From Bdellovibrionales bacterium (GTDB lineage: Bacteria; Bdellovibrionota; Bdellovibrionia; Bdellovibrionales; JAGQZY01), in the NCBI GenBank assembly GCA_964230645.1, contig CAXRHT010000001.1:928001-992000 (forward strand): a DNA stretch of 64,000 nucleotides. Reading direction: 5' to 3'. This document shows positions 2,538 through 9,477 of the stretch, piece by piece. Numbering within the stretch: the first letter of the stretch is position 1; each line of letters starts with the position of its first letter. The notes below the pieces were generated by a model that was given only the letters and a program-made list of their open reading frames with translations, searched no databases and was not told where the DNA came from. The position numbers and the translations under genes are program-made.

Positions 2538-3284
2538 TTAGTCGATACAGAGTGCCTCTACAACATCGGAAGGACGCACCTCATTGGTGACTGTGGAGAT
2601 TTCAAACTGAAGAAAATCTATTCCATCAGGGGTGATTTGCTCCTCGTCCCAAGTTTTGGAAACATCGACATCAAGAACTAGGTCTTCTTTATGATTACCA
2701 ATACTGGCTTTATTTTCCTCTTTAATAGACAAATAATCACCTCTCACCCATAAAAAGGCCCTTCCAAAACCCACAAGTTCAAGTTGGTTTGTGCCTTGAT
2801 AAAGGACCTCGCCCTCACGAATGGTGTGAATTTCTCGGGAGAGAATTTGATTGGTCTCTCTATTGAAAAGGTTTTTGTAAACAACCACCTGATAATTACC
2901 TTCAAAAAGTTGAAGTTCAAAGCTTTGAATTTCACCGAGGTCGACAGCTTGGTCCTGAGGCTCAATTTCGACCTCACTGACCCACCCTTGCATAGGCTCT
3001 GTGCTTTCATCTGATAGGCACTGGGGGTTTAAAGGGTCTATTTGAAGCTCTTTAAAATAAGACCTCGTAGAATTTTTATCGTTAAGTCCACTGATCGTGT
3101 CGTGGACTCTTGCCTCAGGATTGCCCTCTTTACCAGGGACATACCAGTGGTATCTGTAGATTGGCGCGATTCCACAACATATGGGCTCTACCTGGGCCTC
3201 GACTAATTCGGGGCCTGAGTCCTCGTTACTACAAGCTGAGAGAGCGCAGGCTAGGATTATCATTGTTATTTTTAAATATTTCAT
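2538..3284 (-). CDS. hypothetical lipoprotein, last gene of the protease/MACPF-like operon
   Basis: Signal ending LSA|C (lipobox); GAGG RBS; 29 bp after the upstream stop; no recognisable family. Confidence 0.7.
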   Translation of the reverse strand: MKYLKITMIILACALSACSNEDSGPELVEAQVEPICCGIAPIYRYHWYVPGKEGNPEARVHDTISGLNDKNSTRSYFKELQIDPLNPQCLSDESTEPMQGWVSEVEIEPQDQAVDLGEIQSFELQLFEGNYQVVVYKNLFNRETNQILSREIHTIREGEVLYQGTNQLELVGFGRAFLWVRGDYLSIKEENKASIGNHKEDLVLDVDVSKTWDEEQITPDGIDFLQFEISTVTNEVRPSDVVEALCID

Positions 3285-3313
3285 TTCATACCTCTATTTT
3301 TTTATAGTCGTAA

Positions 3314-4561
3314 TTAGTTCTGTACCATCTCTAAGAGTTGTTGCTCATAAAGCTCATAGCGCATTCTGGAAGGCCATTTGATTTCGGTCAGAGAGTCTAC
3401 ATTGATGGTCGCAATACTTGGAAGTTGGCAATCTTCTGTTGTTTGGGCATCTAAACATTTATTGTATAAACTCTCCACCTCTTTAATGGCTTCTCCAATA
3501 TTTTCAAAACGAGTGTCCATTTTGTCGACATACCTCTCACAGCGTTCGATCTGGTTATTTGAGCAAAAGGGATAAATATGTTGATCCCAACTTGTGACAA
3601 AACGGCTCAGACGTTTCCTTGCGCCTGAAAGGCGACGGAAAATATTGATCAACTCATGAAGGGTTCCCCTTTGATGCTCCACCATAAGGCGATTGTCTGT
3701 ACTTCCAACCCCTGGATAAGGTTCTGTGACCCATTTGACCACAACTCGGTCGCTGGTCTCCATGGCGTCTACGAGTTTGCTCACATTGTCTCTAAAGGTT
3801 TGAACATCAGAGGGGCTATTGACCATGGGGCTTAGATTTTTAAAAGGAGCGGTTCCCCAGGCATTCATCTCGACACTGAGGCTTCCTAATTTTGAAAGCT
3901 CCGAGGCTACCTGCATAAAACCAACGGAGGCGTCCGCACTCAATCCTTCAACTCCGTAGGAGGCTTCGGCGGTCGCAACAATTTTTGAGTAATTGTAAAT
4001 GGAGAGCTTTTCAGTGGCTAAAAGAATTCGGATCCCCTGGCCTTTGACGTATCCGGCGACAAATTGCTTTCCACATCTTCTAAAAAACTCTTGGGGGTTT
4101 TCTTGATAAAGTTTTTTAAATTCCGGTTTTAGCTCCACATCAGTGGCGTACCATTTGCCATATTCAGCACTAGCTTCAATACCCACCATGGCGCGGTCAC
4201 TTTCAAGAGAAAAGCGAGACTCCTCACCGTAGCTGACATTGCCACTAAAGCCTGCGTAACTTCCTCCAGCTGAGACTTGGGTGTTAGTGTATTTATCAAC
4301 ATCTCTATAGGAGGTGATCATCTCAACACTCATTTCTAGAGATTTTGGAGGGACATCACTTTCGCTTGTGTATTGGCTGTATTCATCCTCATCGGTAAAG
4401 ACTTCTGAGTTGTAGCTGACACACTTTTCGTAAACGTTGTCAGTCACTGGATCAACTCCGGCGCCTAAACGAAGTTGAAGGTTTTTATGCTCGGGTATGA
4501 TGGCGGCCTGCCCTAGTTGGGCGAACAATAAGGCCCCGGTAATTATGATTGTTTTATACAT
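3314..4561 (-). CDS. secreted MACPF/CDC-like putative pore-forming protein
   Basis: Signal peptide; N-terminal LGAGVDPVT..C; Gly/Ser-rich alternating segments (VSAGGSYAGFSGNVSY; ATAEASYGVEGLSADASVGF) flanking FFRRCGKQFVAGYVKG, which resembles the MACPF Y/WGTHF/Y-x6-GG signature; helical Cys-containing C-terminus. Confidence 0.6.
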   Translation of the reverse strand: MYKTIIITGALLFAQLGQAAIIPEHKNLQLRLGAGVDPVTDNVYEKCVSYNSEVFTDEDEYSQYTSESDVPPKSLEMSVEMITSYRDVDKYTNTQVSAGGSYAGFSGNVSYGEESRFSLESDRAMVGIEASAEYGKWYATDVELKPEFKKLYQENPQEFFRRCGKQFVAGYVKGQGIRILLATEKLSIYNYSKIVATAEASYGVEGLSADASVGFMQVASELSKLGSLSVEMNAWGTAPFKNLSPMVNSPSDVQTFRDNVSKLVDAMETSDRVVVKWVTEPYPGVGSTDNRLMVEHQRGTLHELINIFRRLSGARKRLSRFVTSWDQHIYPFCSNNQIERCERYVDKMDTRFENIGEAIKEVESLYNKCLDAQTTEDCQLPSIATINVDSLTEIKWPSRMRYELYEQQLLEMVQN

Positions 4562-4589
4562 TTTTTAACTCCTCTTTTTTAAAATTGTT

Positions 4590-8682: not shown

Positions 8683-8697
8683 ACAAAGGAAATAAAA

Positions 8698-9441
8698 ATG
8701 CTTAAAACAATCACTCAAACAATTATTTGTACGATTCTTATCTTGCAAGCTCCGCTCGCCTCCTCTTGTCCTTTTCCTTCGGCGGCCACAGTGTACGATA
8801 TGATTCATCACTTTGAGAAAAAGGTCCATACGCTCAATCAACGAAAAGCGACACTCATTGGGCAAATAACGACATTGGCGCCTCGGCTACAAATAGAAAA
8901 ATCAAGAGCTCAAACTCTTGCAACCGATGCCTCAAACTATGCAAAGCTTGTTGAAGCCAATCAGGCTGCGATCAACCAAGCCTACTACATATCTGAGCTC
9001 TTAAAAGAAGTGTCGGTGGAATGCTCTGAATGCCTTACACTTGAGGAACTTTTTGATTACGTGCAAGTTGAGTTGCCCGAGGAATACTGGCCCATTTTAA
9101 GTCCTTTAAAAAGCTACCTGGAGGCTCTTGACGAAAAAGCGGGAGCCGAGAAGCAAAGGCTCACTCAAGCTCTAAAAACTTTTAGCTCTGATATTTTGGT
9201 AGAAGAGCTTGAAACTGAGCTTATTTCTTTAATTGAAATTGAAGAGGCAAAACGGACCGCCTATGAGAAGGCTAGTGCAAATGCTACCAACCTTCAGGCT
9301 TCTTACGATAGCGCCAACCAAAACCTGAGGTCAGTCACTCGTCAACTGGAAGAGGCCTCTGCTGAATTGGTGATTTGGCAAGGCTCCACTGGCCAAACTA
9401 GAGAGTCACAATGTTCCGCGGACGGTACCATTGTTAAATAG
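8698..9441 (+). CDS. secreted coiled-coil protein with central CxxC (paralog of 7029-7805)
   Basis: Signal peptide, CPF motif, ECSECLTL core, heptad arms. Confidence 0.75.
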   Translation: MLKTITQTIICTILILQAPLASSCPFPSAATVYDMIHHFEKKVHTLNQRKATLIGQITTLAPRLQIEKSRAQTLATDASNYAKLVEANQAAINQAYYISELLKEVSVECSECLTLEELFDYVQVELPEEYWPILSPLKSYLEALDEKAGAEKQRLTQALKTFSSDILVEELETELISLIEIEEAKRTAYEKASANATNLQASYDSANQNLRSVTRQLEEASAELVIWQGSTGQTRESQCSADGTIVK

Positions 9442-9447
9442 AGATAG

Positions 9448-9477
9448 AAAGGGAGGCTAGTGGAGCCTCCCCTTTTT
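9448..9477 (+). terminator. intrinsic terminator
   Basis: gggaggct-agtgg-agcctccc followed by a T-run. Confidence 0.8.

Follow-up and report, generated by a model that had tools for sequence, protein, structure and literature searches.

A patchily distributed Bdellovibrionota gene cassette pairing a predicted papain-fold protease with a predicted MACPF protein

The described systems closest to the locus reported here are bacterial pore formers of the MACPF/CDC superfamily that are activated by proteolysis. CDC-like toxins (CDCLs) undergo N-terminal proteolytic activation by a C11 enzyme that sits on the target cell (PMC11169675, PMC11952106) and carry the motif F/Y-F/Y-Xn-YGR where strands 2 and 3 bend (PMC7527733). 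BSAP-1 is also activated by N-terminal cleavage; here the target-cell protease fragipain (C11) makes the cut and cleavage by the producer is dispensable (10.64898/2026.08.05.742979), and both BSAP and CSAP are described as SpII lipoproteins (PMC13245386; 10.64898/2026.08.05.742979). We analysed a locus within a 64,000-nt stretch of a Bdellovibrionales genome (the window), in which the gene for a predicted secreted papain-fold cysteine protease stands directly upstream of a gene for a predicted MACPF/CDC-superfamily protein. Sequence comparison strongly supports that this pairing is conserved, and the cassette that contains it is real, patchy in Bdellovibrionota, and apparently undescribed. A first-pass annotation of this DNA had proposed a seven-gene exported attack system. 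Its open reading frames, operons, promoter boxes, papain residues and MACPF fold were borne out, whereas its "CxxC coiled-coil trio" was not.

The MACPF-like protein and the papain-fold protease

The host genome (3.78 Mb, 43% G+C, 99.6% complete) is contained in sequencing runs labelled marine metagenome, and window positions 1000-13000 are contiguous and difference-free in two public assemblies, which are possibly the source data of this DNA. The list of open reading frames places seven genes in two divergent, tightly packed runs with a 343-nt spacer between them. We named the genes g1 to g7, with g4-g3-g2-g1 forming the left operon on the minus strand and g5-g6-g7 the right operon on the plus strand; genomes and loci used for comparison carry G- and L-numbers, respectively, G000 being the host genome. 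Gaps between genes are 5, 28, and 29 nt in the left and 10 and 15 nt in the right operon. A short basic/hydrophobic N-terminus (hydropathy 2.05-2.8), as judged from the sequence, begins all seven products, and all are predicted to carry export-like N-termini, in agreement with the original description of seven signal-bearing genes in two tight operons. None of the seven exceeded a family cut-off in Pfam, NCBIfam, and PADLOC scans, in which g5 and g7 gave generic coiled-coil matches only. The left operon comprises:

6762-6776, minus strand: sigma-54-type -24/-12 box of the left operon
6685-6035, minus strand: g4, 216 aa, predicted secreted protein of a family without a name
6029-4590, minus strand: g3, 479 aa, predicted secreted papain-fold (C1A-like) cysteine protease
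4561-3314, minus strand: g2, 415 aa, predicted secreted MACPF/CDC-superfamily protein
3284-2538, minus strand: g1, 248 aa, predicted lipoprotein, last gene of the left operon

The structural model of g2 (predicted local distance difference test score, pLDDT, 87.4) supports a MACPF/CDC-superfamily fold. It contains a MACPF core at about residues 20-285, with the bent four-stranded sheet and two flanking helical clusters of the superfamily, followed by a C-terminal helical bundle (290-415), and it lacks a beta-rich receptor domain. Foldseek returned 29 matches at E<=0.001, those listed all being MACPF/CDC proteins, with stonustoxin (4wvm, E 1.8e-6), 2qp2, 9uj0, C8, and Mpf2Ba1 as the best and CDCs also matched. 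The three top rows of the VIA search were 9uj0 (Z 8.9), 6nal, and 4wvm (both 8.3), at root mean square deviations of 4.3-10.3 over 221-286 aligned residues, with generic helical bundles close behind. A 116-row g2 profile matched Mpf2Ba1 (E 1.3e-6), Aeg-L, stonustoxin, and GNIP1Aa among PDB sequences, and an Atlas feature search gave MACPF and cytolysin clusters at a recognition below the reliable level, and thus a lead only. These model and profile matches agree with the first-pass annotation, which had called 3314-4561 MACPF-like and suggested modelling it. A HMMER scan found 205 relatives at E<=0.001, 18 of them at <=1e-30; a single-sequence search of 61 genomes matched the host genome alone.

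The Pfam MACPF family was unmatched in all 19 close g2 members. The MACPF signature reads Y/W-G-T/S-H-F/Y-X6-GG; g2 retains G164, F/Y167, and G174 and differs at the remaining positions, and in the profile alignment this stretch aligns with the Mpf2Ba1 motif. Period-2 hydropathy was 1.71, 0.78, 2.10, and 1.36 for the four hairpin strands and 0.24, 0.34, and 0.0 for control helices, with strand boundaries set by eye and one of the four strands weak. By this measure the helical clusters are amphipathic, with an alternating polarity that fits transmembrane hairpins. Relatives conserve the glycine hinges G164, G174, G176, and G236.

According to its model (pLDDT 89.4), g3 is predicted to be a papain-fold protease with the residues of an active papain. 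The catalytic Q36, C42, H226, and N254 (479-aa numbering from the ATG at 6029) stand in papain order; among 45 relatives the H and N are invariant and the Q and C at least 90% conserved, so that the complete papain-type set seen upstream of the MACPF gene in the first pass holds. Foldseek matched the model to Cwp84, bleomycin hydrolase, and cathepsins at E of about 1e-6 (209 matches at E<=0.001), with a TM-score of about 0.6 to cathepsins when normalised by cathepsin length, and a profile search led to the same three groups. PF00112 is matched at E<=0.01 by 15 of the 45 members, and g3 itself lies below the cut-off (13 vs 20.7 bits). A database search returned 42 proteins including g3, those named being from Bdellovibrionota, and no plasmid match was found. 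While g3 has the fold and the Q/C/H/N residues in common with papain family C1A, it differs in large insertions, a C-terminal helical extension, and the lack of an N-terminal prodomain, the last because the catalytic Gln lies only about 16 residues past the predicted signal cleavage.

How does this pair compare with the described toxins? With the CDCLs (BfCDCL, and EaCDCL with BcdI), g2 has in common a secreted Gram-negative MACPF/CDC fold (fold matches 8g33, 8g32, and 6nal); the left operon likewise contains a lipoprotein gene and would share the proposed cysteine-protease activation near the N-terminus. In place of the YGR of the CDCL motif, strand 3 of g2 carries K173-G174-Q175, with Q in 19/19 members, the strand matching being a reading of the model; the aromatic pair is present (W137-Y138), and a YG[R/K] lies instead on strand 2, ahead of the pair. 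Whereas CDCLs form a long and short pair, there is one MACPF gene here and in 13/13 related clusters as fetched, some of them cut by contig ends, and the other MACPF gene of the host genome lies on a different contig. Furthermore, the cassette encodes its own papain, whereas the activating C11 protease of CDCLs sits on the target cell, so the precedent originally cited applies to activation by a cysteine protease and not to a co-encoded papain; the cassette also adds the helical partner g4 and usually an HExxH lipoprotein.

BSAP-1 and CSAP-1 are, like g2, single-gene bacterial MACPF proteins, BSAP-1 being activated by N-terminal cleavage. In contrast to these SpII lipoproteins, g2 has no N-terminal Cys, its first being residue 47; it ends in a helical bundle, at the position where BSAP and CSAP have a C-terminal receptor-binding domain. 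Judged by motif, component number, and lipoprotein signal, g2 belongs to neither group, although the cassette would work like the protease-activated MACPF/CDCL toxins if g2 is indeed processed. The best structural and profile matches of g2 are stonustoxin (4wvm), Mpf2Ba1 (8b6u/8b6v), Aeg-L (9uj0), and Plu-MACPF (2qp2), and the alignment with 4wvm_B spans residues 18-415 of the model, i.e., the MACPF core and the helical bundle. Identity to these proteins is 10-17%, g2 lacks further C-terminal domains, and the target cannot be read off from a fold match. In listings and abstract openings from a library without most subscription papers, we found no description of a MACPF protein or MACPF-papain cassette in Bdellovibrionota, in keeping with the first-pass view that the gene combination is not a described system.

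The conserved cassette and its distribution

Fifteen other Bdellovibrionota loci carry a close g3 relative (L004-L013, L027-L029, L092, and L095). A MACPF gene lies within the cluster at 13 of them, directly downstream of the protease in seven, one gene off in one, and upstream as a leucine-rich repeat (LRR)-bearing MACPF in five; DNA downstream of the MACPF gene is cut at 2/15 loci. The two main gene orders are g4-HExxH-protease-MACPF and LRR-MACPF-g4-HExxH-protease. The conserved unit is not the set of seven genes proposed; it consists of g4, the HExxH lipoprotein where present, the papain, and the MACPF protein: the expected synteny was found for protease and MACPF, whereas g1 and g5-g7 occur at none of the 15 loci. 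In a tree of 21 MACPF rows, nine of them without protease and the fragmentary L007 and L010 copies left out, the protease-linked MACPFs form three separate clades (support 100/100, 96/92, and 97/97). All six tree members of the g2 clade stand directly behind a protease, despite an identity of about 30%. Three loci with methanogen papains (L014-L016), which matched over only 34-38 residues, had been dropped before the count of 15; L001 and L002 from a metagenome scan, spurious matches to a helix-rich unrelated gene over 116 residues, were also dropped.

Two conserved core members, g4 and the HExxH lipoprotein, had been overlooked by the first-pass annotation. Relatives of g4 are present at 12/15 other protease loci, two of the remaining three being cut by a contig end, and in 7/401 genomes of the phylum, all with the protease, although five of the six non-self matches had built the alignment used. 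The protein has two invariant Cys (56 and 152); it gave no Pfam or Atlas match, and its best hit among PDB sequences had an E of 0.22. Because g3 has no prodomain, because g4 is retained across changes of the HExxH gene or of the type of MACPF, and because it was not found in protease-free genomes, we infer that g4 may act in trans as a chaperone or inhibitor of g3. At L004/L069:1619-2881, a g4 domain follows an unrelated beta-rich domain of 230 aa in one fused protein, encoded between protease and MACPF. The HExxH lipoprotein (about 400 aa) is encoded at 13/15 other protease loci, and the host genome lacks its gene. Its family gave a weak DUF6782 match only (4/9, best E 0.002) and no solved relative; we take it to be gluzincin-like from its HExxH and downstream Glu motif.

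The protease occurs in 9/401 phylum genomes (9/301 in a sample of the order) and a g2-like MACPF in 28/401. An empty insertion site was not demonstrable, as the pfkB neighbourhood differs in 3/3 congeners examined. At L029:8941-10778 (G280) and L010:2875-6745 (G444), the HExxH and protease genes are truncated, and L010 also has a run-together MACPF/g4 open reading frame.

Regulation and the right operon

The right operon and the intergenic region comprise:

6777-6934, no strand: spacer between the boxes, TCCG/CGGA-rich, with an imperfect inverted repeat
6935-6949, plus strand: sigma-54-type -24/-12 box of the right operon
7029-7805, plus strand: g5, exported coiled-coil protein with CxxC at its centre (117/120) and Cys close to either end
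7816-8682, plus strand: g6, exported 288-aa Cys-rich protein without CxxC
8698-9441, plus strand: g7, g5 paralogue with CxxC at 109/112
9451-9471, plus strand: intrinsic-terminator-like hairpin at the end of the right operon (8 pairs, 6 of them G-C, and a T run)

The sigma-54 consensus has GG at -24 and GC at -12. Both boxes show this spacing, the left one ending in GT rather than GC; they face outward, 91 and 94 nt ahead of the starts, and are identical at 12/15 bases, in line with the close similarity seen in the first pass. The host genome contains rpoN. Within the window the strict pattern is not above chance (5 found vs 2.87 expected; 15/100 shuffles reach 5). Genome-wide, such boxes precede 90/1609 leading genes, many for exported proteins, as compared with 1.7% of shuffles. 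The twin boxes therefore indicate that both operons belong to a large regulon; they do not tie one operon specifically to the other. The roughly 90 box-bearing leading genes, about three times the shuffle rate, form a candidate large sigma-54 secretome regulon of the host genome. A box also precedes 7/11 related cassettes vs 18/156 control leading genes (Fisher p 1.7e-4, with kin not independent and start codons chosen by us). Hence the proposed sigma-54 link holds and is a conserved trait of the cassette, but having a twin box does not connect the right operon with it. The spacer has 7 TCCG/CGGA words in 250 nt, the highest of 1215 leading regions in the host genome, and may be a shared activator-binding region; the shuffle p is 0.002 here and below 0.05 in 3/10 other cassette upstream regions, for a motif chosen after looking.

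The two CxxC proteins g5 and g7 are 37% identical over 204 aa and have long coiled coils flanking the central CxxC, whereas g6, whose likeliest start is the ATG at 7816, is not similar to them; the proposed trio is thus two paralogues and an unrelated CxxC-less protein. The left operon does end in a lipoprotein gene, g1 having a lipobox with Cys18. Relatives of g1, g5/g7, and g6 were found at 0/15 loci and in 0/5 whole cassette-bearing genomes, and the g5/g7 profile matched 0/300 other phylum genomes (host, 1/301), in searches that miss distant kin, one g5/g7 search having failed to return g7 itself. These counts support neither g1 as a conserved immunity or anchor protein nor the coiled-coil proteins as rod-like accessories, the roles first assigned to them. 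In our reading, g1 and the right operon were added locally, probably with a sigma factor in common, and show no sign of a role in a pore system.

Possible function and related clusters

We favour, with a probability of about 0.5, a reading in which the left operon encodes an accessory secreted MACPF weapon, likely armed by the co-encoded protease. One sigma-54-type box stands ahead of g4-g3-g2-g1, all four with export-like N-termini; by model and alignment, g3 has an active papain's fold and residues without a prodomain, and g2 has a pore-former fold with amphipathic hairpins. In trans, g4 may replace the missing prodomain as chaperone or inhibitor. The protease, joined in most relatives by the HExxH lipoprotein, would then process g2, for which residues 58-73, a length-variable segment ahead of the first core strand, offer a candidate site at about these positions. 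Once processed, g2 would oligomerise and insert as a pore into the membrane of prey or competitors, the target being perhaps, and least certainly, the Gram-negative outer membrane. Hint and PT-TG toxin neighbours, together with the parallel protease-MACPF arrangements described below, support a conflict-type role and recurrent protease coupling; the same wider loci indicate that protease and MACPF are separable.

A number of observations weigh against arming by the co-encoded protease. Both characterised precedents, CDCL and BSAP-1, use a target-cell protease and not one of the toxin operon. Among the 28 genomes with a g2-like MACPF, 22 have no match to a g3-type protease, and eight of these 22 have Gly-rich collagen-like genes beside the MACPF and no protease recognised among the neighbours. 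Conversely, two of the 15 protease loci lack a MACPF, i.e., L012 with L094 (followed by a met-zincin) and L013 (followed by a Hint toxin), as do four distant protease loci in G555 within the DNA fetched; the g4-protease core can therefore travel with other cargo. The cassette was absent from the 12 congeners and 25 family members searched, and is therefore not core predation machinery, and two copies look broken (G280 and L010/G444). In g2 itself, segment 58-73 is modelled confidently (pLDDT 88-91), and the alignment of relatives showed no conserved cleavage residue in it.

Alternatively, MACPF and proteases could be co-secreted in parallel with no precursor-enzyme relation, the pore opening the envelope and the proteases digesting it or passing through. 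There are also g4-HExxH-protease cores that lack a MACPF, beside polymorphic toxins or a met-zincin, most MACPF-bearing genomes lack the protease, and a conserved cleavage motif was not found in g2. We nevertheless consider such a mixture somewhat unlikely: members of the g2 clade keep their place immediately after the protease in spite of low identity, and MACPFs are similarly paired with proteases of a second family. The target could also be eukaryotic, the same machinery acting as a defence against grazers or other eukaryotes, which is compatible with either activation or parallel secretion. The best sequence and fold matches include the eukaryote-acting Mpf2Ba1, GNIP1Aa, and stonustoxin, some MACPF partners have LRR domains, and a patchy spread fits an accessory defence. 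These matches are distant and of the fold only, however, and the characterised protease-activated Gram-negative MACPF/CDCL toxins are antibacterial. Bacteria of the Bdellovibrio group, furthermore, prey on bacteria, and we regard a eukaryotic target as unlikely.

The seven-gene system of the first-pass annotation, with g1 as immunity or anchor protein and g5-g7 as structural partners of one pore apparatus, is quite unlikely. It could draw on the twin boxes around one TCCG-rich spacer, the exported look of all genes, the roughly 200-aa lipoproteins that follow other MACPFs in G254 and G267, the three helical exported genes in the distant G555 protease operons, and BcdI as a precedent for a lipoprotein immunity gene. 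Against it stand the boxes ahead of some 90 leading genes and the absence of g1, g5/g7, and g6 relatives from the loci and genomes searched, where distant kin may be missed; when g1 and g5-g9 were compared by profile with the helical genes of G555, the probabilities stayed below 3%. A non-lytic MACPF that serves to scaffold the proteases at the surface or in the periplasm seems highly improbable. Non-lytic MACPF-fold proteins exist, astrotactin-2 is among the fold matches of g2, and the model lacks a receptor-binding beta domain, but the alternating hairpin pattern is conserved, as are the glycine hinges, which speaks against such a role.

There is still no good account of how predators of the Bdellovibrio group breach membranes or kill through them. 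The cassette is a compact, testable candidate in which a pore former is combined with a dedicated protease and with a protein family that is new. Arming of the pore by the co-encoded protease, if it occurs, would invert the CDCL/BSAP logic, in which the victim supplies the protease. The patchy spread (9/401 genomes) limits the claim to an accessory weapon at most, not a core invasion machine. A broader proposal, possible but on balance doubtful, is that Bdellovibrionota carry an undescribed class of self-arming attack cassettes in which a g4-type helical chaperone or inhibitor, the HExxH lipoprotein, and the prodomain-less papain form a sigma-54-controlled two-protease relay. On the surface of prey or rivals, such a relay would arm cargo that can be exchanged, namely MACPFs of three lineages and, in distant copies, polymorphic toxins; a subtilase version would have evolved in parallel. 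Predatory Bdellovibrionota would then have their first perforin-like pore formers in these MACPFs, with the arming protease coming from the producer and not from the target.

An arrangement of subtilase, small protein, and MACPF is found above the Pfam cut-off on host contig C3 and in G173 and G255, and weakly in G303; pairing with a secreted protease therefore recurs with a second protease family. Subtilase, a 210-240-aa protein, and MACPF lie in this order in three genomes besides the host (L045:1249-3731, L057:1-3423, and L058:798-3324). The second MACPF cluster of the host (G000:C3 ~532100-540130; L060:5119-13129) encodes a subtilase lipoprotein of 767 aa, a protein of 223 aa, and a MACPF-LRR-Kelch protein of 997 aa, together with two paralogues of 319 aa, of which the second, the one scanned, matched Hint weakly; a -24/-12-type box lies ahead of a gene at C3 531640. 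Lipoproteins beside the G145 and G133 MACPFs were considered as subtilases, which was not supported. G555 contains two operons about 85% identical (L097:182-8762 and L099:3-6852), each with one or more papain relatives ahead of three genes for helical exported proteins and one for a PT-TG polymorphic toxin (599 aa) whose end is more divergent; a g4-like gene (163 aa) and a 146-aa gene complete the set.

In eight genomes, five of them of one genus, MACPF genes lie behind Gly-rich collagen-like exported genes:

L061:5821-9922, L064:6583-10970, L065:6480-11566, L066:6571-11392, and L044 and L046-L048: collagen-like/MACPF loci

Where the flank was fetched there are two collagen-like genes; some of the loci continue with 200-aa lipoproteins and are flanked by a 270-285-aa regulator-looking gene. 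The arrangement could be a fibre-targeted pore system.

In the window, a separate gene pair lies beyond the terminator of the right operon (9666-12307), encoding a 356-aa DUF4214 protein and an exported protein of 523 aa that has an HEMSH motif and whose N-terminal part is of low complexity; relatives of the pair were not found in the fetched loci. Further along, at 15070-17781 on the minus strand, a 903-aa exported protein consists of Cys-bracketed repeats and carries an N-terminal FQNCG motif, which recurs in several exported proteins of the host genome.

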